Below are positions 1 to 50,271 of a stretch of DNA of 64,000 nucleotides, piece by piece; position 1 is the first letter of the stretch, and each line of letters opens with the position of its first letter. The DNA comes from Candidatus Gastranaerophilales bacterium (GTDB taxonomy: Bacteria > Cyanobacteriota > Vampirovibrionia > Gastranaerophilales > Gastranaerophilaceae). The stretch lies in assembly GCA_944323155.1 (NCBI GenBank), contig CALURL010000006.1, forward strand, positions 21,159-85,158, given 5' to 3'. The notes beneath the pieces were generated by a model. The model saw only the letters and a program-made list of their open reading frames with translations, was not told where the DNA came from and made no database searches. Position numbers and translations under genes: made by a program.

Positions 1-568
1 GCAAATGTACATTTCTTCTTGTAAATGGTTTCAATTTAGGATAACCGTCAAAGCCGCCAATAGCAACTGGAACAATATCAGCTTTTGCATTTTTTGCAAT
101 AACAATAAAACCTTTTTTAAGCTCACCTAACTTAGATCCATAAGGTCTTATACCACCTTGCGGGAAAACTCCCAAAGACCAGCTTGTAGATAATATATCA
201 CGAACTGTTTTAAAAGTCGCAATTTCGGGTTTATTTCTATCAACAGCAAAAGCGCCCAAACGTTTTACAAGCCATTCAAACTTATCACCTTTTTCAAAAA
301 GTTCTTTTTTTGCCATATAAGCAATTGGACGTCCGCAAGCCATAGTAACCATAGGAGGATCAAAATGAGAAACATGGTTTGCTGTATATATAAATTTTCC
401 ACTTTTAGCTTTAGTCGGCAAATTTTCTCTGCCAGTAATTGTATAATTGTAGAAAATTTTCATAAACGGAATTACAACAACATACAAAAAACACATATAA
501 AACATTGTTCTAAATATGTTATATTCTGAAGGATATCTTCTATTGTAATTTCTTTGTTTCTTAGTCAT
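1..568 (-). CDS. PlsC-type lysophospholipid acyltransferase, C-terminal end cut by window edge
   Basis: Not in ORF track because there is no stop in the window. My reverse translation from ATG 568..566 (GGAG about 6 nt upstream) gives MTKKQRNYNRRYPSEYNIF...TANHVSHFDPP...VFPQGG. These are the NHxxxxD and FPxG acyltransferase blocks. Paralog of the next gene. Confidence 0.75.
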   Translation of the reverse strand, partial: MTKKQRNYNRRYPSEYNIFRTMFYMCFLYVVVIPFMKIFYNYTITGRENLPTKAKSGKFIYTANHVSHFDPPMVTMACGRPIAYMAKKELFEKGDKFEWLVKRLGAFAVDRNKPEIATFKTVRDILSTSWSLGVFPQGGIRPYGSKLGELKKGFIVIAKNAKADIVPVAIGGFDGYPKLKPFTRRNVHL

Positions 569-570
569 TC

Positions 571-1257
571 TTAACTCCTAGTTTTTTCGCCATCCTTGGA
601 TACATCATTTGGAATATATTTAAATCCAGTAAGTTCTTGAATTGCAGCAATCCATTTTTCAACAACTTCATCAGGATTATCACTATATGGAATTGGTTTT
701 CCGATTTTAACTACAATTTTACCAGAAAAAGGTAAGTGTTTAGCCTCCTGAGTACCTGTAATTCCAATAGGCAAAACTGCGCATTTCGTAATTTTAGCAA
801 GTCCTGCAAAGCCTTTTGTAACGCCGGTAATAGTTCCAGGAACACCTCTTGTTCCTTGAGGGAAAATTCCGAACACCCATTTACTTTTTTTAATTTCAAG
901 AACAGTTTTAATGGTAGAAGGTCCTAAGCTTTCTCTATTAACAGCAAAAGTTCCCAGCCAATCAATCCACCACCTGATAAACGGAATATCAAACAACTCT
1001 TTTTTAGCCATAAAAGAGACCCTACGGGGTAAAATTGCAGCAATCATAGGTGGATCAAGGGTAGAAAGATGATTTGGACAAACAATATATTCATTATCCT
1101 TTGGAACATTTTCCAATCCTTCAACCTTAAGTCTATATACGACTTTCAAACGAATCATATAAAATATTTTACAAATAATAAGTTGGAATATTGTTCTCCA
1201 AATATTAAATTCAGAGGCATTTCTTTTTGTATAATTTTTGTCTTTATCCCAAAACAT
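571..1257 (-). CDS. 1-acyl-sn-glycerol-3-phosphate acyltransferase family protein (PlsC-like)
   Basis: 228-aa ORF with NHLSTLDPP (NHxxxxD) and FPQGTR acyltransferase motifs. Confidence 0.85.
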   Translation of the reverse strand: MFWDKDKNYTKRNASEFNIWRTIFQLIICKIFYMIRLKVVYRLKVEGLENVPKDNEYIVCPNHLSTLDPPMIAAILPRRVSFMAKKELFDIPFIRWWIDWLGTFAVNRESLGPSTIKTVLEIKKSKWVFGIFPQGTRGVPGTITGVTKGFAGLAKITKCAVLPIGITGTQEAKHLPFSGKIVVKIGKPIPYSDNPDEVVEKWIAAIQELTGFKYIPNDVSKDGEKTRS

Positions 1258-1390
1258 TTATAATAATCCTCTTAAAGAAATAGTATACTGTTTACTAAAA
1301 TTATACCTATAAGAAAGAAATATGACAAGTATTGAAATATAAAATAACAGCCTCTCTACCATCCTCTCATCCAAAACTAGTTGAATGGTG

Positions 1391-1442
1391 AAAGTTTGGT
1401 ATACCTGCAAAGCTGTAGGTTTTAGTTTTCCACCCCAACAAA
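1391..1442 (+). repeat. Degenerate REP-like hairpin unit (..CTGTAGGTTTTAGTTTTCCACCCCAACAA)
   Basis: Shares the AAAGTTT..GGT..CTGTAGGTT...CCCAACAA layout with units at 1536-1564, 1785-1837, 3895-3930, 53978-54033 and 56024-56064. Confidence 0.6.
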
Positions 1443-1483
1443 AAACATATCCTCTAGCCACATTGGGGAGAGAGTTAGAGAGA

Positions 1484-1564
1484 GGGGTGCTACGCACGTA
1501 GAAACTTGTGCCAATATTTGAGAGACTTAAAAAAATTGTAAGTTGGGGTTTCTACCCCAACAAG
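1484..1564 (+). repeat. Composite intergenic repeat, copy 1
   Basis: GGGGTGCTACGCACGTAG (CTACG/CGTAG palindrome), then ..CAATATTTGAGAGACTTAAA.., then hairpin TTGGGGTTTCTACCCCAACAAG. Aligns by eye with copies at 1681, 1741 and 3895 (inverted). Confidence 0.8.
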
Positions 1565-1680
1565 TAAACTTGTTCCCTCTCCTAGGGAGAGCGGATTGCG
1601 AGCAGAGGGCGAAACGGCGGCGCGCAGGCGACGGCGTTGCAGCCCCGTTTAACGCGAGCAACCAAGCAGGGATAGGGTGA
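1565..1680. other. GC-rich ~115-bp island embedded between repeat copies, function unknown
   Basis: CTCTCCTAGGGAGAG palindrome followed by GCGGATTGCGAGCAGAGGGCGAAACGGCGGCGCGCAGGCGACGGCGTTGCAGCCCCGTTTAACGCGAGC. Composition differs sharply from the surrounding AT-rich DNA. AAACGG..CCGTTT can pair. Confidence 0.4.
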
Positions 1681-1740
1681 GGGGTGCTACGCACGTAGGA
1701 ACCTGTATCAATATTCGAGAGACTTTAAAGTTTTTGGTCA
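1681..1740 (+). repeat. Composite intergenic repeat, copy 2 (lacks terminal hairpin)
   Basis: GGGGTGCTACGCACGTAGGAACCTGTATCAATATTCGAGAGACTTTAAAGTTTTTGGTCA, directly abutting copy 3. Confidence 0.8.
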
Positions 1741-1837
1741 GGGGTGCTACGCACGTAGGTAACTTTACCAATCTTCGAAAAACTTTAAAGTTTTTGGTGA
1801 AAATATAACTGTAGGTTGGGCATACCTGCCCAACAAG
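1741..1837 (+). repeat. Composite intergenic repeat, copy 3 (full length); left arm of inverted repeat around the giant pilin-like gene
   Basis: GGGGTGCTACGCACGTAGG...ACTTTAAAGTTTTTGGTGAAAATATAACTGTAGGTTGGGCATACCTGCCCAACAAG. The reverse complement of 3895-3991 aligns over the whole length at roughly 80 percent identity by eye. Confidence 0.85.
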
Positions 1838-1839
1838 AT

Positions 1840-1866
1840 AAAAAAAGAGCCCGATTTATCAGGCTC
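1840..1866 (-). terminator. Rho-independent terminator of the giant pilin-like gene
   Basis: Minus strand reads GAGCCTGATAAATCGGGCTC followed by TTTTTTT, 35 nt after the stop at 1902. Confidence 0.7.
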
Positions 1867-2639
1867 AGTAATGTTAACCAATTTAAATGTTTGTTTTGGA
1901 GTTACATTTTAATTGGTCGGATTGGTACAAGACGACAATCTGCATCTTGTACTTTACATTTGTCATCGATGGTCATGCCACCGCAGTATGCACTGGTTTG
2001 GATATAACCACTCTTACAAGCGGCTTCACGGAAACTTGTACTCTTTAATAACCATTTGACTACACGGGCTTGGCCGCTGTAATCGTCATACTGAAGACTT
2101 ACCTCCAAGTCACTCTTACTGTTGCCGCCGCGTTCACTACCGTCTTCCGGGAAACCTGGAACGACGGTACCAGATAAGGTTAAGTAGAACGGAAAAACAT
2201 CTTCATAAAGAATACTATCACCGGCGTTGCCGTTGACGTCAACATAAACAATATAACCGCCTTCGTCCATGGTGACACATTTACCGTCAGCCAAGAACAT
2301 TCCTGCTGGACAATAGCAGCCGCAATCAGGATAATCTGTCATATTACCGCCTGAGTCGACACATTGGCTTATGGCGTCTGCATTACAGGTTTTACGTCTA
2401 CATGTGTTTGCGCCGGTGCTTTCGTAGGGCTCTTCACATTTGCACAAGCAGCCTTCTAAGTATGTACTCATCGTGCCATGGCTGGAAACACAAGCATTGA
2501 CAACATCGGTCGCACAGGTTAACTCTACACACTTACTGCCGTCACTGGCATAACCTGCAGGACAGTTGGTACATTTACAATCTGGATATGAAGTCATAGT
2601 CCCGCCACTTGAAGTACAGGTACTTATCGCGCCTGAATC

Positions 2640-2960
2640 ACAAGTTTTCATTGTACAACTGCCATTAACTAAGTTATAAAGACTTGAACAGGAATTGCAA
2701 CGGCCGGTACATTTATCGCAATTAGTACAGCCTGCACTGCAGGATTTATTACAAGCTACACAAGAGGAGCCAGACAACTGGTAACCGCTCGAACAGCTAC
2801 TACAACGACCGGTACAACGGTCACAATTGCACAACCTGCACTACAGGAGGTATTGCATAGCTGGCAACTGCTGCCGACTAACTTATAACCACTAGAACAA
2901 GAACGGCACTGACCAGTACATTTATCACAGTCGCTGCAGCCACTGCCGCAACTGCCGTGC
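2640..2960 (-). repeat. Three tandem ~105-111-nt coding repeats (furin/VSP-like Cys-rich units)
   Basis: Peptide units GSCGSGCSDCDKCTGQCRSCSSGYKLVGSSCQLCNTSCSAGC / ANCDRCTGRCSSCSSGYQLSGSSCVACNKSCSAGC / TNCDKCTGRCNSCSSLYNLVNGSC, read across the frame breaks. Confidence 0.75.
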
Positions 2961-3775
2961 AGGGTTGGCATTCTTCACCTCTATGTGCAGCACCTAAACT
3001 AACTGCTTTGTAGCCACTCGGGCAAGAACATGAACAATATGGAAAACCGCCCAGAGGGTAGCCTCCTGGATTATTAAATGTGCCACCCGAATTTTGACAT
3101 CTATTTCGATTACCTACAGAACAGTTAACAAGAGCAAACGCAGGTGGCGTAAGATTATTCATAATACCTGTCAGAAAACCACTAAACCTTTGTAGAATAC
3201 TCGCGAACTTAAAGCCGGAGACATAACCTGTTTTCATATTGCCCTTCAACTGAGGTATTTCTACATAGTCATTTTTTACATTATAAAGCTTCATGCCGTT
3301 ACGAAAAACTATATCTGGTTGTACACCCGAAAAGTCTCCTGATGCAACAGCTTGAGATATGGCTGATTTGTTGTTGCCGCTACAATTTGAAGAGACTGTA
3401 TTCACAGACTCTTCGACGGCCTCACAGAAATCATTGCCATTGGTAGGCAAAGTTACTGAGATTGATACACAATCACAAACACTTTTATCGAATGCGTAAC
3501 CATCGGGACATTGTTTTTCTGTGCTACACGTGCCTTCTTTGTGCTCGGTGTCCTGTTTCTTAATTGAATATGAATTGCCGATTAAATTCGCAGAGACACT
3601 GTTTAAGGTGTCGTAGGCGGCAAAATATGTATAAGTGACAACTTTGTCTAACTTCGTGCGGGTGATTTTTATACAAACTCCGGCGACTACAGCTATAATC
3701 AACATGACGATGATTACCTCGGACAACGTAAATCCGAACGACCGCCGAAGTCCTTGGGAGACTAAGGAATTATCG

Positions 3776-3786
3776 CCCCCCCCCCC
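3776..3786 (-). repeat. G11 homopolymer (coding strand) at codon 10 of the giant pilin-like gene; in frame
   Basis: Counted 5+6 C on the plus strand. Coding strand is ATG+27 nt+G11 = ...LLS GGGG D. With G10 the frame would hit TAG (GCG ATA ATT CCT TAG). Confidence 0.9.
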
Positions 3787-3851
3787 GCTTAACAAGCGTA
3801 AGATTCTTTTCATCTTTTTTACCTCTCTATATTCTGTGTAACTCCAATTTT

Positions 3852-3880
3852 ATTATATTAGATTTTTTGAACTTATGCAA
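3852..3880 (-). promoter_or_regulatory. Sigma-70-type promoter TTGCAT-N17-TATAAT for the giant pilin-like gene
   Basis: Minus strand: TTGCAT (3880..3875), 17-nt spacer, TATAAT (3857..3852), ~39 nt upstream of ATG 3813, with AGAGAGG as RBS. Lies inside the inverted-repeat bracket. Confidence 0.55.
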
Positions 3881-3894
3881 CCCGTAAATTTTTA

Positions 3895-3991
3895 TTGTTG
3901 GGCAGGTATGCACAAACTACAGTTATATTCTTACCAAAACCTTTAAAGTCCCACGAATATTGACACAAGTCTCTACGTGCGTAGCACAGGG
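3895..3991 (-). repeat. Composite intergenic repeat, copy 4 (inverted); right arm of the bracket
   Basis: TTGTTGGGCAGGTATGCACAAACTACAGTTATATTCTTACCAAAACCTTTAAAGTCCCACGAATATTGACACAAGTCTCTACGTGCGTAGCACAGGG is the reverse complement of the unit at 1741-1837. Confidence 0.85.
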
Positions 3992-4079
3992 ATATGAGTT
4001 ACACAATATCAAATTTGATTGCATAATACAAGTTTTTTGTATAATATATTTATAAAAGATTATATTAAGGAGAGAACAG

Positions 4080-6397: not shown

Positions 6398-7159
6398 AAA
6401 ACCAAGGATAATCATCTTTTATCTGCCAGCCGTCATAGAATATCAAACCGGTACAGTAATTAGCATACTCTTTAGTAGGTTTTCCTGAGCAATAATCCAG
6501 AAGCTGAGATCTTTGTAACCCCAAACCTCCATATGGCTCTAATCCAGTTTTTTTGTATTGAAAAGTAAAGTATTTTGAGCCGCAACAAGCTTGTTGGGAA
6601 TTAACGTCCTTCTGGCAGCTATCAACATCTTTTGCGTAAGGATAAAAATACATATCAAAGACTGTTTTGGAATTGGTCGCAGCAAAACGAATTCCAAAAC
6701 CGCTTCCGTCAACAAGCTTAACCCAAACAGTATAATCATGCACCATTCTTTCAACAGAAAGAACATTCATATGCTTTCGTAAATAGGTATTGAACCACTC
6801 CTCAGTAGCTGATTCCTGAGTCAAATCCGGATCAGGCCAATTTTCAACTTCACCATATTCAACTTCTGCTAATTTTACAGCCTGTGAAAAAGTTGAATAG
6901 AATTTTTTTAACCTTGTCTCAGCAACACCTTTTTTGTGATTAGCAACCATAGAAGGAATAGTTAAGGCTGCGACAATGCCGATTATTCCTAAAGTAATTA
7001 AGACCTCTGCTAGAGTAAAGGCGGGTTTTATTTTAGATACCTTTGTTGAATTGCAAGAAATGCATTGTCTTTCAAAAAATTTTAAAGTTCCACAAACATT
7101 GGCGCAGGTATCTAGGCGCTTGCCCCCCCCCCAACTGCTCTTCTAAATCTATTTTTCAT
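6396..7159 (-). CDS. Prepilin-type N-terminal cleavage/methylation domain protein, phase-variable leader; currently out of frame at G10
   Basis: Track ORF 6396..6950 continues upstream in frame as KPA|FTLAEVLITLGIIGIVAALTIPS with no ATG/GTG/TTG. ATG at 7159 (AAGGAGG RBS) is 209 nt upstream (209 mod 3 = 2) and reads MKNRFRRAV+G10 then GCA AGC GCC TAG. One extra G fuses it in frame with no stops (checked codon by codon). C-terminus is GWQIKDDYPWF. Confidence 0.8.
7123..7132 (-). repeat. G10 homopolymer at codon 10 of pilin-like gene (off frame)
   Basis: 8+2 C counted on the plus strand. Confidence 0.9.
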
Positions 7160-8872: not shown

Positions 8873-9732
8873 CTAATACGGACTTTCATAATCATCAAAA
8901 GTATATTTTCTATTACAAAAGCTTTGATTACCCTTTACGCATTTTAAATAATCAAGATTTTCTTCCTGTAACACCCACGCAGAACAGCCACTGCCATTCC
9001 ACCAGCCATCTGCTCCAGTATCAGATGCAGGATTACACTGCTTGTAAGTAGAATGAGCTCCTGAACCGCCGCGGGGAATAATCCTGTTTCGTCCAACCTG
9101 AAATGTAAATGTGTCTACTCCCCAGCGATTTGGCCCTCTATTACCGTTTATATCGACATCAATATTAAAACAGTAATTATTACCTGAAAAAATGCCGCAC
9201 ATATTATCTTTTGCAGAACTAGCAGAGATTTGGTGGCCAAAACCGTAGACTATACCGTCTGCTGAAATTAAAGATGCACGGCTTCCGATTTCATCTACAT
9301 TATTATTAAGCAAATCTTTTCTCGCATCTTTTTGAAAACACTTGCCGCTATTGTTTTCATCAGGTGTACACACGCGCACATTTTTGATATATTTACTAAA
9401 CAAAATTGCGACATCATCCCAGGAATCATTTTCTAATGAAGGTAAAGACCAGTCTGATGGTTCGCCATAATCGTTCAGCATCATTGTATAGGCATTCGAT
9501 ATAGTTGAATATGCTTTTTTCAAACGAACAACTGTTTCTTTTTCCCTATGATTGGCAATTAAATTAGGCAATGTCAAAGCTGCGACAATGCCAATTATCC
9601 CTAAAGTAATTAAGACCTCTGCAAGGGTAAAGGCGGATTTTCTCGGTTTGCCAGACTCAATATAAGAGGTAAAATGGCCCTCTACGCGGCGCTTGCCCCC
9701 CCCCCGACAAGCTTTTTAAACAATCTTTTCAT
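8873..9732 (-). CDS. Prepilin-type protein, phase-variable leader; out of frame at G10; start overlaps murG stop
   Basis: ATG 9732 overlaps the murG TGA (ATGA). Reads MKRLFKKLV+G10 then GCA AGC GCC GCG TAG. G11 would give MKRLFKKLVGGGGKRRVEGHFTSYIESGKPRKSA|FTLAEVLITLGIIGIVAALTLPNLIANH..., joining track ORF 8873..9577 (155 nt offset, mod 3 = 2). Contains IDVDINGNRGPNRWGVDTFTF. Confidence 0.8.
9696..9705 (-). repeat. G10 homopolymer at codon 10 of pilin-like gene (off frame)
   Basis: 5+5 C counted on the plus strand. Confidence 0.9.
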
Positions 9733-21595: not shown

Positions 21596-22449
21596 TTAAT
21601 AATTCATTTCCCAGTTGTCATTTAGAATTTTTCCGAAACATCCATCGCCAAGAGGTGATTTTTGACAAAATGATTCAAATCTTTTTTCACGGTTTTCAGA
21701 GATACAATTAGAGGAATTGTCACTACATGTGTTAATTTCTTTATACTCATCAATTGAACCATCTTGATAAAATCTAGCGATAAACATATCTCTTCCACCG
21801 ATATTAGGGCCATTAACTCCGTTAACGTCAATAGTAATCAACCCGCCGTAAAAATTTTCGCTTGTTTCATATACAGCAATAGGAGATACACAAATAGAAG
21901 CGCCACTTGCTATAACAAAACATTTTACACCATCTGAAGTCTCAACATTCGTACTAAAAGTCTTAGTCCCATCAATAGATCTGTATTCATCTGCAAAACA
22001 AGGTCTATATTTGGTACCACAATCATTTACTATTTTAAAATACTGAGTCATAAAATCAGTTGTTTTATCCGAAGATGACAAACCTGCTTCTACTAAGTTT
22101 ATTGCGTTATGATCAGTTTGATATCTTACAAAAGCCTGACTAAATTCACTATAAACTTTATGTAATTGAGTTACATAAGTTTTTCTCTGATGATTTTGCA
22201 TTAAAGTTGGAACAGTCATGGCAGAAACTACACCAATAATTCCTAAAGTTACCAGAACTTCCGCTAGAGTAAATGCACATTTCTTTTTAAAAACTCTTGT
22301 TGGGCTGAAGATAGTATAGACCTTCTCCCCCAAATTGACGATTTGGTATAGATCTAAATTGTTTTTTGAGCAAACATTATCAGCTGCATCACCGTGTGCA
22401 ACTAAGCCTTTGCCCCCCCCCCAACTGTTTCTCTAAATAAATTTTGCAT
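21596..22449 (-). CDS. Prepilin-type protein, phase-variable leader; out of frame at G10
   Basis: ATG 22449 (AAGGAGG RBS, 12 nt after the radical-SAM stop) reads MQNLFRETV+G10 then GCA AAG GCT TAG. G11 would give a 59-aa leader ending ..KKKCA|FTLAEVLVTLGIIGVVSAMTVPTL, joining ORF 21596..22333 (116 nt offset, mod 3 = 2). Contains DVNGVNGPNIGGRDMF and the C-terminus GCFGKILNDNWEMNY. Confidence 0.8.
22413..22422 (-). repeat. G10 homopolymer at codon 10 of pilin-like gene (off frame)
   Basis: 8+2 C counted on the plus strand. Confidence 0.9.
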
Positions 22450-28315: not shown

Positions 28316-29314
28316 ATGACACTATTTATAACACTTGTAGCATTCGTTTTTATAATAGGGCTTTGTATAGGAAGTTTTTTAAATGTTGTCATACTCAGAA
28401 CCCTATCTGAAGAATCAATTGTTTTTCCAGCGTCAAAATGTCCAAAATGCCAGCATCCGTTAAAATGGTGGCATAATATACCTTTAATATCTTATATTTG
28501 CCTTAAAGGCAAATGTGCTTTTTGTAAAGAACCAATCAGCATACAATATCCTATTGTGGAACTTTTAACAGGAATCATATTCACATTAATATTTTTAAAA
28601 TTCGGCATTTCTGTTGATACAATTGTGGGCTGGATTATTGCAAGTTTACTTATTATTATTGCAGGGACTGATTTTAAAGAAAAAGTTGTTTATGATATTC
28701 ACACACTTTCACTTGTTGGTGTAGGTCTTTTATACGCTGCAATAGTTACAGCTTATGGATTATTTGTTATGCACAATGCAACTGGAGAAATCACATTTAG
28801 CAAAGATTTACTTCTAAACAATCCTTTCACAAACTCAGTTCTTGGCATAATTGCAGGTATTGTTATTATGGAAGTATTTGCGAGATTTGGCTACCTTGTT
28901 CAAAGAGGTGTTAGAATGTTTGAAGTCGGCGATACTTATATTGCTGCAGGTTTGGGAGCATTTCTTGGCTGGAGAACACTAATTATTGCTCTTATATTAT
29001 CAGTTATATTGCAAGTTATATATTTTCTGCCGCTATTTATCAAAGATTTATTTTGTAAAAAAGAATGGAAAACGCTTATTCCATTTGTACTATTTGTAAT
29101 TTATGCCATAACATTTTTCTCACTAGAACATTATGGAATTATAGATATTTCAAACTTTGCATTATACAGTGCATTAACACTATTGCTTGCAGGTCTTGGA
29201 ATTTATACATGTTATAGAATATTTAAAGGTCTAAGAGAAAATCCATCATCTGCAACATGTTTACCGTTCGGACCGGCAATGGTTGTTGCCGCGCTAATTT
29301 TGTTAATTTTATAA
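28316..29314 (+). CDS. pilD: Prepilin peptidase (A24 family, PilD-like)
   Basis: Zn-finger-like CPKCQHPL...CAFCKEPIS, QYPIVELLTG, GTDFKEKVVYD and VGDTYIAAGLGAFLGW aspartyl motifs, multi-pass membrane. Confidence 0.85.
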   Translation: MTLFITLVAFVFIIGLCIGSFLNVVILRTLSEESIVFPASKCPKCQHPLKWWHNIPLISYICLKGKCAFCKEPISIQYPIVELLTGIIFTLIFLKFGISVDTIVGWIIASLLIIIAGTDFKEKVVYDIHTLSLVGVGLLYAAIVTAYGLFVMHNATGEITFSKDLLLNNPFTNSVLGIIAGIVIMEVFARFGYLVQRGVRMFEVGDTYIAAGLGAFLGWRTLIIALILSVILQVIYFLPLFIKDLFCKKEWKTLIPFVLFVIYAITFFSLEHYGIIDISNFALYSALTLLLAGLGIYTCYRIFKGLRENPSSATCLPFGPAMVVAALILLIL

Positions 29315-29333: not shown

Positions 29334-29390
29334 ATGTTATTCAAAAATAATTCACGCGTTTGCCCCCCCCCCGACAAGCTAATAAAATAA
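29334..29390 (+). other. Inverted copy of the pilin leader/homopolymer module; reads as an 18-codon mini-ORF on the plus strand
   Basis: AGGAGG 29321-29326, then ATG 29334 ... CGCGTTTG-C10-GACAAGCT. This is the reverse complement of AGCTTGTC-G10-CAAGCGC seen at 9690-9715. Plus-strand ORF is MLFKNNSRVCPPPDKLIK*. Flanked by direct repeats ATAAAATAAA(A)GG at 29311 and 29382. Confidence 0.6.
29363..29372 (+). repeat. C10 homopolymer (tract inverted relative to the adjacent pilin-like gene)
   Basis: 8+2 C counted on the plus strand. Confidence 0.9.
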
Positions 29391-29417
29391 AGGTTTTTGG
29401 GGATATCTATAAAAATA

Positions 29418-29446
29418 TTGACAATTTTAAGAATATACTTCATAAT
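29418..29446 (+). promoter_or_regulatory. Candidate promoter TTGACA-N17-CATAAT upstream of pilin-like gene 5
   Basis: TTGACA 29418-29423, 17-nt spacer, CATAAT 29441-29446. Confidence 0.5.
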
Positions 29447-29471
29447 AGTGATGTGTTACATCTCAAATTAA

Positions 29472-30166
29472 AAAAATAAATTATATATTGAGGAAGATAA
29501 GATTATATCCAAACTTGCTTTCACATTAGCTGAAGTTTTAATTACGCTCGGAATTATAGGGATAGTTGCAGCGTTAACTTTACCGTCAGTTATTACTAAA
29601 TATCAAAAAAAGAGGCGGCCACAAGACTTGAACATGCTTATGCAGTTGTATATCAAGCCATAAAGATGTCAGAAGCAGTTAACGGGCCTATGGAAGACTG
29701 GCAAATCGAAGGTATAAATGATTTAAGCTACGCTGAAATTACTAAAAATTTTGTTGAAAGGTATATAACACCATACCTTACAACTGTCAATAAAAAACAA
29801 TTACCTTCATCTGGTATGCCTTATGACTATTACTATAGAGAAAACGGAAAGCTTGTTAATGCCGGCGGGCATACATATTATAGTATTGCGTTGAATAATG
29901 GAACTTATTTGCATTTTAATGCAGACTACGGACAATCCAATCCAATAAGCTTAAGAATTGATATAAACGGAGAAAAGAAACCTAATATTGCAGGAAGAGA
30001 TACATTTCATCTCTACTTTTTCCCGAAATTTGAATTTGAGGGTAGCAATTTAACAAGAACACAGCTGATAAATGGGTGTAAAAATGGAGTTAATTATGGT
30101 TCTGTACACTGCGGACGAATAATTCAAATGGATGGATGGCAGATAAAAGACGATTACCCTTGGTAG
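29472..30166 (+). pseudogene. Prepilin-type gene lacking a canonical start and frameshifted in an A7 run
   Basis: Open frame from 29472 reads KNKLYIEEDKIISKLA|FTLAEVLITLGIIGIVAALTLPSVITKYQKK with no ATG/GTG/TTG (GAGGAAG RBS-like, then in-frame ATT 29502). The frame is lost at A7 (29605-29611). An A8 would continue EAATRLEHAYAVVYQAIKMSEAVNG into track ORF 29666..30166. Contains LRIDINGEKKPNIAGRDTFHLYF and the C-terminus GWQIKDDYPW. Confidence 0.75.
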
Positions 30167-30175
30167 CCCCTCCCT

Positions 30176-30799
30176 CTACAATGAAAGTATTCGCAAACTT
30201 TCTTTCAAAATATCTTCAGCAGACGCATTATCCGACAAAACAGAGACGGCTTTTGATAATGCGTTTTGTATTTCCTTGCGTTCATAACCCAGTGAAACAA
30301 GAACCATTTGAGCATCTTCAATAGCCTGATTATCCTGTTTTACCTCTGATATAGAAGTTATTTTTATCGGCTCTTTTGTTTGATAATTCATTAATTTATC
30401 TTTCAATTCCAATATAATTTTTTGAGCGAGTTTTGGTCCAACACCTTTAGCTCTGGTTAATTCTTTGTAATTACCTTCAATAACAAAGCCGATAAGTTCT
30501 GATGTTTCAAATTCATCAAGCAGAGTTAAAGCCATTTTTGCCCCGACTCCAGAAACTGAAATCAGGATATTAAATATATCTCTTGCTTCTTTATGCAAAA
30601 ATCCGCACAATGACATTTTATCTTCCCTATGCAAAAGAACAGTATAAATTTTGCCTTCTTGCCCCGGTTCAGGAGCAGAGTTAAAGTCTCTCAATGTTAC
30701 CTCAAGCAGATACCCGATTCCAAAAGTCTCTACGGTAACGTATGTTCCCTTTGAAGTATTTGATTTATTAGTAAAAATACCTTTTATATAATCGTACAT
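30176..30799 (-). CDS. ruvA: Holliday junction branch migration complex subunit RuvA
   Basis: MYDYIKGIF... N-terminus, two HhH motifs (VSGVGAKMAL, AKGVGPKLAQKI), C-terminal domain III. Confidence 0.88.
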   Translation of the reverse strand: MYDYIKGIFTNKSNTSKGTYVTVETFGIGYLLEVTLRDFNSAPEPGQEGKIYTVLLHREDKMSLCGFLHKEARDIFNILISVSGVGAKMALTLLDEFETSELIGFVIEGNYKELTRAKGVGPKLAQKIILELKDKLMNYQTKEPIKITSISEVKQDNQAIEDAQMVLVSLGYERKEIQNALSKAVSVLSDNASAEDILKESLRILSL

Positions 30800-32196
30800 T
30801 AACTCTCCTTTAAAGAACTTCTGATTTCTGCTACAGCACGGTCAAGCTCTTTATTCACACGTAATTCATCCTTAATTTTTTCATAAGAATAAAGCATTGT
30901 TGTGTGTTTTTTATTGAAATATTCTGCAATACATTCAAAACTTTTTTGTGTAAGTTCACGTGCGAGATAAACAGCAACATGACGTGCTGACGAAACCCTT
31001 TGATTTCTGGAAGAACTCAAAAAATCAGCTATAGAAACGCCATAGTGTTCACCTACTGCTTTTGCGACTTTATCAATTGTCAATGCTTTTTTAGAAGCCT
31101 CACAGTTAAGAACTTTTTTTGCAAATTCCAGCGTAATATCTGTATTTTCAATATCTGCGTAAGCACTGACTTTATTAAACGCACCTTCAAGCTCTCTTAC
31201 ATTATTTACAAAATTATTTGCGATATATTCAAACACAGGAAAATCAATTTTCAAACCGGCCTGCTCTGCAAGATTACTCAAAATAGCGACCCTTGTTTCA
31301 AAATCAGGCGGTGTAATATCAACAACAAGTCCCATTTCAAAACGGGTTCTTAACCTGTCTGGAAGAGTCGGAATATCTTTTGGCAGCCTGTCTGATGTTA
31401 TAACAATCTGTTTATTATTGTTGTGCAAACTGTCAAATGTATGGAAAATTTCCTCCATTGTATAAGTTTTACTTTCCAAAAATTGAATATCATCAATTAA
31501 TAAAACATCAACATTTCTATACTTTTGACGGAACTTATCCATTCTGGAATTTCTTTCTCCGCCATGCTGGAGATTTTTAATTAATTCATTAACATACTCT
31601 TCTGTTTTGATATATTTTACACGGAGTTTCGGCTTATTAAAAATAATATAATGGCCGATTGCCTGCATAAGGTGAGTTTTGCCAAGCCCTGAAGCGCCGT
31701 AAATAAAGAGCGGATTATATTTTTTTGCCGGATTTTGAGCAACAGTAAGCGCTGCTGCATGAGCAAAACGGCTATTTTCACCTACAACAAAATTTGAAAA
31801 TTTATATTTTAAATTCAAATTTGCAGATGACTGCATTTGAGCAAGATTGTCAACCATAGAAGAATCATCCGTATCAACTGTAAGAGAGCGTTTTTGTTTT
31901 GCAAACTCCTTTTTCTTCTCTTTTTGATATTTATCAGCAAGTTCAGCATCAAAAGTAATATGATAGCTTACGTCTTTGCCTAATACTTTTTTAAAGGCAT
32001 CAGTAATTTGTTTATTGTAATTGGATTTAACCACCTGTGGCGCAAGAGAATGAACTGTATAAACAGAAAAAACATTTCCGTCATAATCAGCGGCTTCCAA
32101 AGGTTCAAGCCACATTTGATATGCAGGTGTAGGAACTGTATCCCTTAATTCAGCCTTAACTTCACTCCAAAGATTTTTTACTTCCTGTGTTTCCAT
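30799..32196 (-). CDS. dnaA: Chromosomal replication initiator protein DnaA
   Basis: AAA+ Walker A GASGLGKTHL, LLIDDIQF, C-terminal DnaA signature (RNQRVSSARHVAVYLAREL). Stop overlaps the ruvA ATG (TAATG). Confidence 0.93.
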   Translation of the reverse strand: METQEVKNLWSEVKAELRDTVPTPAYQMWLEPLEAADYDGNVFSVYTVHSLAPQVVKSNYNKQITDAFKKVLGKDVSYHITFDAELADKYQKEKKKEFAKQKRSLTVDTDDSSMVDNLAQMQSSANLNLKYKFSNFVVGENSRFAHAAALTVAQNPAKKYNPLFIYGASGLGKTHLMQAIGHYIIFNKPKLRVKYIKTEEYVNELIKNLQHGGERNSRMDKFRQKYRNVDVLLIDDIQFLESKTYTMEEIFHTFDSLHNNNKQIVITSDRLPKDIPTLPDRLRTRFEMGLVVDITPPDFETRVAILSNLAEQAGLKIDFPVFEYIANNFVNNVRELEGAFNKVSAYADIENTDITLEFAKKVLNCEASKKALTIDKVAKAVGEHYGVSIADFLSSSRNQRVSSARHVAVYLARELTQKSFECIAEYFNKKHTTMLYSYEKIKDELRVNKELDRAVAEIRSSLKES

Positions 32197-39413: not shown

Positions 39414-40123
39414 CTAATAATTCATTTCCCAGTTGTCATTTAATATCTTTCCAAAACAACCTGTCCAATAGCTAGGACTCAGGCAATAATCATTATATGC
39501 TTTTTCGCGCTCATCACGTGTTCCCGGGGCAGAAACAACATGATAATCATCAACCATTCCATTATTAAATAAAGATATGATAAAAACATCTCTACCTGCG
39601 ATATTAGGCCCTTTTGCGCCATTAATATCGACATCAAGCGTACATAGTCTGTCACCAGCACCTGTTGTATAGCCATAACCTATTGATACACCACTTGTCA
39701 GAGTTATAAAGGCTGGTCTTGATGAATAAATATTTGTTCCTGATAAGTTACGATATTCAGAATTAGGAGCAAAACACGGTACAGACTCATCCTTACAATC
39801 ACTTGCGATATTAAAATATGTCTTAAAAAAACTATCTAACGCAGCTTGAGAATTCAATCCTGCTTCCCGCATATTTACAGCATTATGATCAGTAATATAC
39901 CTTTGAGCAGCTTGTGACAATTCAGTATAAAATTTATGCAATTGCGTAACATACACTTTACGCTGATGACTTTGCATTAAAGTTGGAACGGTCATCGCAG
40001 AAACCACCCCAATAATACCCAAAGTAACCAGAACCTCTGCTAACGTAAAGCCTCTACGGCGATTGGAAAAGGAGACTAAGCCTGTGCCCCCCCCCCGTGA
40101 AGTGCTCTAATTAATTCTTTCAT
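39414..40123 (-). CDS. Prepilin-type protein, phase-variable leader; out of frame at G10
   Basis: ATG 40123 (AAGGAGAG RBS) reads MKELIRALH+G10 then GCA CAG GCT TAG. G11 would give MKELIRALHGGGGTGLVSFSNRRRG|FTLAEVLVTLGIIGVVSAMTVPTL, joining ORF 39414..40022 (101 nt offset, mod 3 = 2). Contains LDVDINGAKGPNIAGRDVF and the C-terminus GCFGKILNDNWEMNY. Confidence 0.82.
40087..40096 (-). repeat. G10 homopolymer at codon 10 of pilin-like gene (off frame)
   Basis: 4+6 C counted on the plus strand. Confidence 0.9.
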
Positions 40124-46016: not shown

Positions 46017-46170
46017 ATAATTTGACTATTCCCAATATTGGTAATTACCCTCATTTAAAGTCACTCTAATATTAGCATAGGTGTACCTATCCACTCATCC
46101 CCATACTGGCACTATAATAATATTTGGAAAAGAATGGCTATTCGTGACGTCCTAGATTAATATCTTAAGG

Positions 46171-47066: not shown

Positions 47067-48437
47067 TTATTTTAGCAATTCGTTAATAGCTTTTGCAGCC
47101 TTTTTACCTGCACCCATAGCATTAATAGCGTTAGATTCTCCAACAGGAGCAACGTCACCGCCTGCGTATACTGTTTGAATATTTGTACTGCGGGTTTCTC
47201 CGTCAACTGTAATATAACCGCGTTTGTCTGTTATAATTTCCAAACCTTCGGCTTCAGCGGATTTTTGGATAATCGGATTAGGACCTGTACCTAATGCAAC
47301 AATTACAGTATCAAGATCCATAATTTCTGTTTTACCTGTTGCAACAGGACGTCTTCTGCCGGATTCATCAGGTTCGCCAAGCTCCATTACTTCTAATTCT
47401 ACAGCTTTTACATAACCGTTTTCGCCGATAATTTCTTTTGGTGCGTAAAGGAATTTGAAAACTATACCTTCTTCTTTCGCGTGTCTGATTTCTTCTAAAC
47501 GTGCCGGAAGTTCTTTTTCTGTACGTCTGTAAATAATATAAACTTCTTCAAAACCTACGCGGACAGCAGTTCTAGCAGCATCCATCGCAACATTACCGCC
47601 GCCAAAAATCGCAGCCTTTTTACCAACTCTTAAAGGTGTCGGGCTATCAGGCTGTCCTGCATGCATCAAGTTTACACGGGTTAAAAATTCATTTGCTGAA
47701 AATACTCCGTTTAAGTTTTCACCAGGAACATGAAGCATTTTTGGCAACCCTGCACCAGAACAAATAAATATAGCATCAAAGCCGTCTTCTTTTAATTGTT
47801 TCAATGTAATAGATTTTCCAACAATTACATTAGTATGGAATTTTACTCCCATTGCTTTTAAGTTGTCGATTTCTCTGTCTAAAACAACACGCGGAAGGCG
47901 GAAAGGAGGAATTCCGTATCTTAAAACTCCACCAAGTTCGTGAAGCGCTTCAAATACTTCAACCTCATGTCCTGCTTTTCTCAAATCACAAGCCGCAGTC
48001 ATTCCTGCACAACCTGAACCAACTACTGCAACCTTTTTCCCTGACGGTTTAATTTCAGGCATTTCAGCTTTTGTATTATCGCCAACATATCTTTCAAGAG
48101 CGCCTATTGCAACAGGAAGTCCTTTAATGCCGAGGACACAATTGCCTTCGCATTGTCTTTCCTGCGGGCATACACGGCCGCAAACAGATGGAAGCATACT
48201 AGTTTCTCGAATTATTTCACCTGCTTTAGTCAAATCTCCTTCTTTAATAGCATGAATAAATTGAGGTATTTGAATGTTTACAGGACATCCTTGAACACAT
48301 TTAGGATTTTTACAATTGAGACATCTTGAAGCCTCAAGTTTAACCTGTTCTTCTGTCAAATTACTTTCAACAGGCTCAAAATTATGACGTCTTTCAAATT
48401 TATCCTGTTCTTTTACATGTTGTCTTTCTACAGCCAT
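47067..48437 (-). CDS. gltD: NADPH-dependent glutamate synthase small-chain family oxidoreductase (GltD/GltA-like)
   Basis: 456 aa. N-terminal Fe-S motifs CLNCKNPKCVQGCPV and CGRVCP..C, two dinucleotide folds VAVVGSGCAGMTAA and AAIFGGGNVAMDAA. Confidence 0.8.
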   Translation of the reverse strand: MAVERQHVKEQDKFERRHNFEPVESNLTEEQVKLEASRCLNCKNPKCVQGCPVNIQIPQFIHAIKEGDLTKAGEIIRETSMLPSVCGRVCPQERQCEGNCVLGIKGLPVAIGALERYVGDNTKAEMPEIKPSGKKVAVVGSGCAGMTAACDLRKAGHEVEVFEALHELGGVLRYGIPPFRLPRVVLDREIDNLKAMGVKFHTNVIVGKSITLKQLKEDGFDAIFICSGAGLPKMLHVPGENLNGVFSANEFLTRVNLMHAGQPDSPTPLRVGKKAAIFGGGNVAMDAARTAVRVGFEEVYIIYRRTEKELPARLEEIRHAKEEGIVFKFLYAPKEIIGENGYVKAVELEVMELGEPDESGRRRPVATGKTEIMDLDTVIVALGTGPNPIIQKSAEAEGLEIITDKRGYITVDGETRSTNIQTVYAGGDVAPVGESNAINAMGAGKKAAKAINELLK

Positions 48438-48531
48438 TTTATATCCCCTTCTTATAACTTAAAAACTTTCTTATACTACTATTGTACTTTAAAAAAGCAA
48501 TAGTGCAAGAAATTTATAATACAAATATTGA

Positions 48532-49467
48532 CTAATATTTAAGGGAATTTAAAATTTTTGTATTATGAAGATACTTATTATAATATCTTTTACGGCTTTT
48601 TTGAGAACCAACTTTTGAATATATGAAAAATTTTATATTATCAAACTTCAGTTTAAACATATATTTATAGATATTATATGAATTTTGCATCATAAAATCT
48701 TCATAGAAATCGGATAATCTAGCATATTTCCACCAAATATGCCTCATACTATGCATACAATCAAAACGATTCGGGTTTGCACCGACGAAATGAACAATTA
48801 TAGGATTTTCTATTTTGTCATTAATATTAAGCCAGTATTGTTCACAATAATTGTATTCTCGACCAAGATTTATTTTTCGTTCATCAATCATAATATTTAA
48901 AGTATCTTGATCAGCACATTTTATATTTTTAACATTTTTTCTAACGTAATCGACTGTTTTTTCATAAAAATGTTCTTCACGCCATAATTTTGCATTAATT
49001 AAAATAACGCCAGCATTAAAATATAGTAAGCTTTTCAGGCCTATGCCCCCCCCCCCGGGAAGCGCCACTACTGCAGCATAATTGCTGCCAAGGTCAATAT
49101 TAAACAAATTTTTAAGAGAGCTAAGAACCATTGTATCGGAATCTAAATATAGAATCTTATCAATATCATTACACAATTCTGCAATCTTTATTCTAAACCA
49201 TGTAGCCATTGTAACCCAATTTACAAGAGGAAATCCCTTAAATTCGTCGCGTTCTACTTTTACAAAACGGATATTACAATGTCTGATATTTTTTACAGAG
49301 TTTATTTTTTCTATACTAGCGTCAGACAAGCCCGAATGGATTATAACAAACTCAATTTCATCACTACTGTCAGCATTTTTCAAAACAGAAATCATTGATA
49401 CAGATGTTATACCGGCATAATTCTCATCAGGAGCATATGCAATAGTAATCTTTTCTTTTTTCAACAT
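48532..49467 (-). CDS. Glycosyltransferase family 8 protein carrying an internal in-frame G11 tract
   Basis: 311 aa. IAYAPDENYA.., YLDSDTMVL (DxD), FNAGVILINAKLWRE are GT8 blocks. The tract encodes LPGGGGIGL near codon 137-141. Confidence 0.85.
   Translation of the reverse strand: MLKKEKITIAYAPDENYAGITSVSMISVLKNADSSDEIEFVIIHSGLSDASIEKINSVKNIRHCNIRFVKVERDEFKGFPLVNWVTMATWFRIKIAELCNDIDKILYLDSDTMVLSSLKNLFNIDLGSNYAAVVALPGGGGIGLKSLLYFNAGVILINAKLWREEHFYEKTVDYVRKNVKNIKCADQDTLNIMIDERKINLGREYNYCEQYWLNINDKIENPIIVHFVGANPNRFDCMHSMRHIWWKYARLSDFYEDFMMQNSYNIYKYMFKLKFDNIKFFIYSKVGSQKSRKRYYNKYLHNTKILNSLKY
49046..49056 (-). repeat. G11 homopolymer inside the GT8 gene (in frame)
   Basis: 5+6 C counted on the plus strand, followed by GGG. 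Coding strand is CCC-G11-CAT. Confidence 0.9.
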
Positions 49468-49488
49468 TTTTAATCTCCATACTTACCA

Positions 49489-50271
49489 CTACTTACACAT
49501 ATTTTTAGAATATGAAATTTCATAAATATTACTTAAACATTTCTCCGTATAATCAGAAATTACTTTATCTTTACTTTTACCCTCAATAAACCAATCAGTA
49601 AAATAATTTTCAGTAGGTGCTTTAATAGGTCTGTAATTGATATTTTTATTTAAATCATCTTTATTAAGAAACCCGTCAGAATACGGAGCGTGTAAAACAA
49701 TATATTTAAAATTTCCCTTGCATCTGTTTTTTAAAATATCATATATTTCATTAAGTTCATTTGCACAGACCTTTTCACCCTCTTTTATTGATGAAAAAAA
49801 TATAAGAGGTTTATTGGATTCTAACATGTTATAAAAATTTTTAATCCTTTGAATATAACGTTTTACAAAATGAATTTTGTCACGTTCTTTAAAATTATCA
49901 TGCGGAAAAATTACGCCTAATTTGTCATTAAACCAACAGTTATTTTCTACAGAATATGTAACATTATCAAAAAAATCCTTAAAGTCTGTTTTTAGAAAAT
50001 GCAAAACTGCACTAATAGGGGTTACAGAAAGATCAAACGGAAAAGAGAGTTCTCCATCTTTTTTTCTAAACTTAAAACCATTTTTAGTAAGCAGCATTCT
50101 TGGATAACAACTTGTTCCAAGTGGAATAAATGTATTCTTTTTTGCAAAAGTTTTATCACGGAAATTTAACTTTAAACCGCAAAAAAAATGTGGTATTCTA
50201 AATAGAATTATGGATATTCTTCCAAATTTTTGTTGCAATTCAAACAGTTTCATAACCGAAATTTTCCTCAT
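49489..50271 (-). CDS. Hypothetical protein (possibly DUF1796-like), adjacent to the GT8 gene
   Basis: 260-aa ORF. IPLGTSCYPRMLL..G......SFPFD resembles the N-terminus of the DUF1796 putative papain-like family as recalled from memory only. The true start may be internal. Confidence 0.45.
   Translation of the reverse strand: MRKISVMKLFELQQKFGRISIILFRIPHFFCGLKLNFRDKTFAKKNTFIPLGTSCYPRMLLTKNGFKFRKKDGELSFPFDLSVTPISAVLHFLKTDFKDFFDNVTYSVENNCWFNDKLGVIFPHDNFKERDKIHFVKRYIQRIKNFYNMLESNKPLIFFSSIKEGEKVCANELNEIYDILKNRCKGNFKYIVLHAPYSDGFLNKDDLNKNINYRPIKAPTENYFTDWFIEGKSKDKVISDYTEKCLSNIYEISYSKNMCK

Follow-up and report, generated by a model that had tools for sequence, protein, structure and literature searches.

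We analysed a 64,000-nucleotide stretch of a Candidatus Gastranaerophilales contig (CALURL010000006.1), referred to here as the window, in which a GT8 glycosyltransferase gene contains an uninterrupted run of eleven G residues. The gene is an open reading frame (ORF) of 311 aa on the minus strand (48532..49467). It was assigned to the retaining GT-A glycosyltransferases by Pfam, PDB and model comparison, and in the window it is in frame (ON). A ribosome-binding site (RBS), GGAG, lies on the same strand at 49475..49478, 7 nt upstream of the ATG (49465..49467).

The GT8 gene and its G11 tract

The encoded protein matches PF01501 (Glyco_transf_8) over residues 9-230 with an E value of 8.5e-37 and 127.5 bits, against a cut-off of 24.3. 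Its best sequence match in the PDB is LgtC of Neisseria meningitidis (1G9R, E=4e-26). An AlphaFold2 model built with 28 homologues reached a predicted local distance difference test score (pLDDT) of 92.7 and a predicted template modelling score (pTM) of 0.92. The top Foldseek match of this model was again LgtC (1SS9, E=6.9e-22, template modelling scores 0.72/0.80, 28% identity in the structural alignment), followed by WbbM, GlyE, 3TZT and other GT8 structures. An initial annotation, made from the letters alone, had called the gene a GT8 glycosyltransferase and likened its tract to the poly-G phase-variation switches of GT8 enzymes that act on lipooligosaccharide (LOS) or lipopolysaccharide (LPS). 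This is borne out in that LgtC, the solved structure nearest to it in both sequence and fold, is itself a poly-G phase-variable LOS transferase.

With regard to the catalytic residues, the DxD motif is encoded by GAT TCC GAT (49135..49143, minus strand, 5' of the tract) and corresponds to D109-S-D111. Across the 28 aligned sequences, D111 never varies and D109 hardly does, and the motif aligns with D103-I-D105 of LgtC in the 1G9R alignment. Q187, the glutamine of the DQD motif, is likewise invariant and pairs with Q189 of LgtC. H226 is invariant within VHFVG and is presumably the equivalent of His244, the metal-site histidine of LgtC. The gene thus shows every feature of GT8 and PF01501 that sequence or structure can test. 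At the C-terminus, the model has two long basic helices (residues 255-283 and 289-310) rich in lysine, arginine, tyrosine and phenylalanine, which suggests a peripheral membrane attachment by analogy with LgtC.

The tract is read directly as C11 on the plus strand at 49046..49056. The coding strand therefore runs CCC-G11-CAT, as initially annotated, and the run encodes the four glycines G138-G141 (GGGG) within an open frame that spans the tract (...AAVVALPGGGGIGLKSLLYFNAGV...). It lies between the D109-S-D111 block and the Y149-F-N-A-G-V154 block, which also agrees with the initial reading. Only tract lengths of 3n+2 preserve the frame, which is broken by G10 and by G12. In frame translation, the G10 allele reads GGG GGG GGG GCA TAG and stops two codons past the tract, at a TAG at 49041..49043 (minus strand; proteins P0056/P0059/P0064), giving a product of 141 aa that ends in ...LPGGGA*. 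The G12 allele stops ten codons past the tract, at a TAA at 49016..49018 (minus strand; protein P0060; loci L016 and L017), giving a product of 150 aa that ends in ...GGGGHRPEKLTIF*. Both products keep the DxD motif and lose the acceptor- and donor-binding half with YFNAGV, DQD and H226. The expected mid-domain truncation upon gain or loss of one G is thus confirmed, and both truncated forms occur in public assemblies.

The window has a G+C content of 34.2%, and the lengths of its G/C runs end at 6 and restart at 10-11. Seven runs of at least 10 were observed, compared with approximately 0.003-0.004 expected under a first-order Markov model, which sets the GT8 tract well outside anything that chance would produce. 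GGG is the rarest glycine codon in the long ORFs of the window (10% of glycine codons), and the six other GGG peptide runs, which belong to housekeeping ORFs, are each written with a mixture of GGN codons. The window contains no tetra- or pentanucleotide arrays, and G/C tracts are its sole class of simple sequence repeat (SSR). All seven runs read as C on the plus strand whatever the direction of the gene. GC skew follows gene orientation and defines no replichore by which this shared polarity might be tied to the leading or lagging strand.

In the AlphaFold2 model, G138-G141 lie in a coil between the strands at residues 135-137 and 148-150, that is, in a variable surface loop. The tract region is the most indel-rich stretch of the catalytic domain in the 28-sequence alignment. 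None of the 27 homologues has a glycine run at this position, where sequences such as FEDNHLNLKS or PYNGYLNLKD, or a deletion, are found instead, and across 80 related genomic loci the GT8 gene never contains a G/C run of 8 or more. These orthologues came from a scan of genome collections and share at most 53% identity with the window protein among the matches listed, none of which is from the species itself. The homologues and their loci, again among the matches listed, are mostly metagenome-assembled genomes (MAGs) labelled Candidatus Gastranaerophilales or Melainabacteria. The initial annotation had held that orthologues encoding the glycine run with mixed GGN codons would speak against a switch; on inspection, the orthologues were found to have no glycine run at all. 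As the homologues lack the glycine run, the loop is rich in indels and the related loci are devoid of a tract, the comparison identifies the GT8 tract as a species-specific addition at a tolerant position.

Tract length and deletion alleles among conspecific contigs

Conspecific contigs were collected from ENA and Logan assemblies through exact-protein look-ups and a 90%-identity cluster. An exact-pattern scan of Joint Genome Institute (JGI) metagenomes, using the tract flanks with a variable gap, gave no match. Among the 19 conspecific contigs with an intact-length gene, the tract is G10 in 12, G11 in five and G12 in two, which brings G11 to six and the total to 20 when the window is included. 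In all 19 contigs, the tract is kept as an uninterrupted homopolymer of variable length. Outside the tract, the GT8 gene shows 0-1 single-nucleotide polymorphism (SNP) in 925 bp. The full-length G11 product of 311 aa exists as two alleles (P0055 and P0063), and the fragments on record measure 141 aa (G10), 150 aa (G12), and 185 aa and 119 aa, the last two being C-terminal pieces located 3' of the frameshift.

Tract length changes between contigs whose flanks are nearly identical. The window (G11) and L008 (G10) differ by no flank SNP in 6000 bp, L004 (G10) and L018 (G11) by one flank SNP in 6000 bp, and the window (G11) and L016 (G12) by two flank SNPs in 4108 bp. At least two flank haplotypes carry G10 and at least two carry G11, and G12 is seen on the haplotype of the window. 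Tract length does not go with strain background, and at least three to four separate length changes are needed to account for its distribution.

A third state of the locus was found in 11 further conspecific contigs, which all share the same junction. In these contigs, the segment 46170..48519, containing hyp297 and gltD, is inverted, and the segments 46017..46169 and 48520..49263 are deleted (L104, L105, L107 and L121-L128; the rearranged locus lies at L104:17618-19990 and L121:3204-5576). The second of these deletions removes the 3' 732 bp of the GT8 gene, or two-thirds of it, including the tract, and leaves a 5' remnant of 204 bp (P0058, ...CNIRFT*). Three of the 11 deletion contigs have an additional frameshift in this remnant. 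The 31 copies therefore comprise six that are ON, 14 that are OFF by their tract and 11, about one third, that are deleted.

The GT8 gene also lies in an island of low diversity of approximately 1.2 kb (48415..49675), within which the SNP profiles show 0-1 SNP between strains. In strains that share this island, the flanks differ by 1.2-3.3% and the neighbouring genes by 0.8-4.3%, with gltD reaching 4.3% (Poisson P from 2e-4 to 1e-12). The simplest reading of this island is the recent spread of a single tract-bearing allele by homologous recombination. Taken together, the tract, its length variation, the switching of frame and the dispensable nature of the repeat are the comparative hallmarks of an SSR contingency gene, and on these grounds the GT8 gene is a candidate member of that class.

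Pilin-like leader tracts and the gene neighbourhood

The six other tracts of the window measure 10-11 nucleotides, the length class that the initial annotation had ascribed to them along with the GT8 tract, and every one of them sits at the 5' end of a type IV pilin-like gene. Five of them (3776, 7123, 9696, 22413 and 40087) are on the minus strand, approximately nine codons past an RBS and ATG, and precede prepilin-like N-termini (xFTLAEVLITLGIIG) with DUF6613 C-terminal domains. With G10, the frame of the ATG ends within five codons, and G11 joins the start to the pilin frame. A codon-by-codon reading of the 7123 gene revealed no start codon of its own in the pilin frame between the tract and the mature N-terminus.

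Only one pilin-like gene is in frame in the window. Its leader tract, at 3776..3786 (minus strand), is the only G11 among the pilin tracts, and its product, encoded at 2878..3813 (minus strand), matches the prepilin N-terminal domain TIGR02532 with 18.8 bits against a cut-off of 16.3. In L102 and L103, this tract is G10 and out of frame; around it, L102 is 99.84% identical to the window and the tract is the sole gap. The protein itself has 311 aa and a Cys-rich repetitive C-terminal half with CxxC-type repeats, and the region of its gene is higher in G+C (39.9% for positions 1-4000 of the window). In one strain, represented by the BRZ_AK contigs L008 (0 SNP in 6 kb around GT8) and L102, the GT8 and 3776 tracts are both G10 (OFF), and both are G11 (ON) in the window; this is a single pair, too few for an inference on coupling.

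At 7123..7132 (minus strand), a G10 tract nine codons past the ATG leaves the gene one G short of the DUF6613 frame, with PF20318 matched on the downstream ORF, and the same length is found in L100-L102. G10 leader tracts also leave OFF the pilin-like genes at 9696..9705 (minus strand, DUF6613), at 22413..22422 (minus strand) and at 40087..40096 (minus strand), where all nine other strains covering the locus have G10 as well. The sixth pilin-like gene, also OFF, is on the plus strand (ATG at 29335, region 29335-30166) and has a sense-strand C10 tract at 29363..29372. It adjoins the prepilin peptidase gene (28316..29314, plus strand), and its copy in the window has two further frame breaks. The counterpart in another strain (L104:280-1111) has an intact frame of 268 aa that would be joined to the ATG by C11. 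The peptidase belongs to the type IV prepilin peptidases (A24), and its gene is near the centre of the window. Across strains, the pilin tracts are G10 in 26 of 27 observations, and these genes look like a silent library, each one G away from expression.

The initial annotation had further suggested that the glycan and pilin-like repertoires are switched by a single mutational mechanism. The 3776 tract supports this part of the claim: the window has G11 there, and two strains that are nearly identical to the window have G10. The idea needs qualification in that the pilin tracts are nearly fixed at G10 and the GT8 tract is polymorphic. We also considered the conserved G(n)-CA...TAG flank as the mark of a mobile cassette and rejected this, the pilin flanks being explained by paralogous leaders.

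The gene directly upstream of GT8 encodes a DUF1796 protein (49489..50271, minus strand; PF08795, E=9.4e-11). It is co-oriented with GT8 and ends 21 bp before it, a gap that suggests an operon in which the two genes are probably co-transcribed. Scans for promoters and terminators around GT8 gave nothing above the expectation from shuffled sequence. In the closest syntenic species among the matches listed, a rabbit MAG (L020), the gene order is M20-MutS2-GT8-DUF1796-GltD followed by a hypothetical gene, with identities to the window of 72% for MutS2, 85% for GltD and 53% for GT8. The species assignment is based on this synteny with Gastranaerophilales MAGs. The GT8 gene of L020 has no tract. 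Its DUF1796 gene is split by a G10 tract at L020:11571..11580, in the same G(n)CATAG context as in the window; this G10 reads ...CCVGGGA*, and G11 would restore the frame. The CATAG shared by GT8 and the DUF1796 gene of L020 could be due to chance in an AT-rich genome. From the sequences compared, poly-G control appears to have evolved independently in adjacent genes of two sister species. A second G10 of L020, of the leader type, follows a short ATG leader at the end of the contig (L020:14172-14181), and runs of G9-G12 are also present in the Gastranaerophilales loci L057, L059 and L066.

Another relative has the order MutS2-DUF1796-GltD with neither GT8 nor tracts. Because related species hold these three genes without GT8, the latter can be classed as an accessory, dispensable gene at this locus. 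An obligatory phase-variable module of DUF1796 and GT8, suggested by the tract in the DUF1796 gene of L020, was considered and rejected, since DUF1796 occurs without GT8 beside gltD (L114-L116) or gyrA (L117-L120), with no tracts there. MutS2, which adjoins the locus, is not a mismatch-repair enzyme. Elsewhere in the window, dnaA (30799-32196, minus strand) lies near the middle with RuvA downstream; there is no switch in GC skew nearby that would place the origin. Two tandem copies of a 60-bp unit richer in G+C, 87% identical to each other, are located at 1676-1798, between the ORFs 571..1257 and 1902..2834.

Interpretation and comparison with known systems

We consider it probable that a dispensable glycosyltransferase of the envelope alternates between a full-length form (G11) and truncated forms (G10 and G12) through slipped-strand mispairing at the G run. 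In this mechanism, mispairing during replication would add or remove one G, and only lengths of 3n+2, here 11, would yield the full enzyme of 311 aa, with G10 and G12 giving truncated products. Within a population, some cells would then make one particular glycosyl addition to a glycan of the cell envelope and others would not. With its LgtC-like fold and two long basic C-terminal helices, the enzyme would most likely act on a surface glycan assembled at the inner membrane, of the LPS/LOS type or another. We infer that the switch could also revert from OFF to ON and that it may have an adaptive value, for instance in the evasion of phages or antibodies. The GT8 tract is best read as part of a wider poly-G set that would also gate the type IV pilin-like genes.

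Several observations weigh against this interpretation. The tract lengths were taken from consensus assemblies, several of which have a coverage of only 2-6x according to the contig names. All length patterns fit repeated losses from G11 to G10 or from G11 to G12, the direction of change not being polarised. The absence of secondary lesions from the OFF alleles is no proof that they are maintained by selection, because the allele is very young (at most one SNP). The 11 irreversible deletions, together with the 14 of 20 copies that are OFF, also fit a gene on its way out. With regard to the substrate, the protein scores 87.1 bits with NF011718, the NCBIfam equivalog for LPS 3-alpha-galactosyltransferase, and does not reach its cut-off of 461. 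The gene also lies outside any LPS/LOS cluster, its neighbours encoding MutS2, DUF1796, a GltD-like oxidoreductase and a hypothetical protein. As the NF011718 score is far below the cut-off, the enzyme is a GT8 paralogue and not an RfaI orthologue; this score and the locus rule out orthology with the named LPS core enzymes RfaI/WaaI, RfaJ and LgtC sensu stricto.

The alternative that survives best is non-adaptive decay, in which the tract is no more than a site of frequent mutation within a dispensable gene that is disappearing, and the G10 and G12 alleles are young dead-end pseudogenes. This is what the prevalence of out-of-frame copies (14 of 20 of intact length), the 11 contigs with an irreversible inversion-deletion, the further frameshift in three of their remnants, the related species without GT8 at the locus and the lack of any OFF-to-ON event that can be polarised among the contigs would lead one to expect. 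However, copies with the in-frame G11 persist on three or more flank backgrounds, side by side with OFF copies whose flanks are identical, and the tract is uninterrupted in all 20 copies even though GGG is the rarest glycine codon. Moreover, six more tracts of the same class are present in which one G decides the expression of a pilin-like gene, which indicates a maintained system, and the sister species L020 has an equivalent tract in the neighbouring gene. We therefore regard decay as unlikely, and toggling of the enzyme by slippage as the better explanation.

An artefact would require a single true tract length and homopolymer errors in Illumina assemblies of low coverage. G homopolymers of 10 or more are indeed error-prone, and the names of several contigs give a coverage of 2-6x. 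Nevertheless, the other poly-G tracts are called consistently in the same kind of assemblies: the non-modal lengths amount to one in 27 observations there and to eight in 20 at the GT8 tract (Fisher P=0.003), and the contrast between the GT8 and pilin tracts persists when probable duplicates are removed (P=0.016). The T8 and A8 runs used as control homopolymers are invariant in all loci, and in the closest pairs, with 0-2 flank SNPs, no indel besides the tract was found over as much as 6 kb. Where different assemblers yielded contigs with an identical haplotype, probably from the same study, the tract lengths agree (L004/L005/L006/L007 with G10, L018/L019 with G11, and L010/L011 with G10). Because the pilin tracts, the T8 and A8 runs and the calls across assemblers are stable, assembly noise is a very improbable source of the variation at GT8.

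Leaky decoding, by which slippage during transcription or ribosomal frameshifting would let G10 and G12 alleles make a certain amount of complete enzyme so that the tract would tune the level of the enzyme, is equally improbable: long homopolymers can cause slippage of RNA polymerase, mainly at A/T runs, and the fact that nearly all pilin tracts have precisely ten G residues might mean that G10 is itself a functional state, but in the G10 frame of GT8 the stop comes immediately after the tract, and to our knowledge transcriptional slippage is documented for A/T rather than G/C runs. No slippery heptamer and no structure that would stimulate frameshifting came to notice, although no search aimed at them was made.

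A broader reading joins these elements into a genome-wide poly-G contingency system in gut Gastranaerophilales, with a pilin-like library held at G10 with an occasional G11, a GT8 gene toggling between G10, G11 and G12, and a tract-bearing allele that was recently recombined across backgrounds diverging by 1-3% and competes with a deletion allele. For this joint reading we see the chances as evenly balanced. If it is true, there would for the first time be evidence that surface variation is programmed in the non-photosynthetic sister lineage of the cyanobacteria, which would imply strong pressure from phages or antibodies, and this variation would be readable directly in public metagenomes.

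Nearly all that is known about phase variation by homopolymer slippage comes from cultured pathogens such as Neisseria, Haemophilus, Helicobacter and Campylobacter. Full-text searches of the literature available to us turned up no paper that connects phase variation, homopolymeric tracts or contingency loci with the Melainabacteria or the Gastranaerophilales. The mechanism is classical, and a system of this kind is what specialists in phase variation would expect. What is new is the lineage, a non-photosynthetic relative of the cyanobacteria and an uncultured gut commensal; the independent site of the tract within the fold; and the distribution of ON, OFF and deleted alleles across the population, together with an island of low diversity, as drawn from public assemblies. 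Stochastic variation of a surface glycan and of a pilin-like repertoire is indicated, which bears on persistence under pressure from host immunoglobulin A (IgA) and phages, and this opens a testable question on immune or phage pressure in the biology of gut Melainabacteria. There is also a practical consequence for annotation. Since MAG annotation pipelines split or drop such genes, as seen in the fragments of 141, 150, 185 and 119 aa, 'pseudogenes' at G/C tracts in Gastranaerophilales genomes are better read as switch states. The frequencies of ON, OFF and deleted alleles of contingency genes can be obtained across cohorts from existing assemblies.

The system most similar to the GT8 tract is found in Neisseria, where lgtC, lgtA, lgtD and lgtG are LOS glycosyltransferase genes that are phase-variable through poly-G/C tracts, ranging from (G)8 to (G)16 among gonococcal strains (PMC5320596, Table 2). 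Like LgtC, the enzyme of the window is a GT8 glycosyltransferase with an intragenic poly-G tract that encodes a glycine run and switches the gene on or off by frameshift. In contrast, the GGGG of LgtC (RGGGGN) is located at approximately residues 54-57 of the 1G9R sequence, whereas that of the window enzyme occupies residues 138-141, within the loop that follows the DxD strand. These different sites point to independent origins of the two tracts. The window gene also differs from the Neisseria lgt genes in that it comes from an organism of a different phylum and is not part of an lgt-type operon.

With regard to Campylobacter, tracts of G8-G13 occur mainly in LOS, capsule and flagellar-glycan genes. 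In the PhasomeIt study (PMC6321876), the G/C tracts of the Campylobacter jejuni poly-G phasome are described as concentrated in genes for surface structures. The genome studied here is likewise a gut-associated genome of low G+C content, with seven tracts of G10-G11 in 64 kb. Unlike in C. jejuni, most of the tracts in the window would gate type IV pilin-like genes through their leaders and are held at exactly G10, and the genome comes from an uncultured melainabacterium.

The pilin-like genes, rather than GT8, resemble Neisseria pilC, in which a 5' poly-G tract in the signal-peptide region decides the translation of a pilus-associated protein (PMC5320596). In the window, the G10 or G11 tract is similarly placed, approximately nine codons past the ATG. 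In contrast to pilC, however, the tracts of the window gate the pilin-like subunits themselves, which have DUF6613 or prepilin N-terminal domains and occur as many paralogues.

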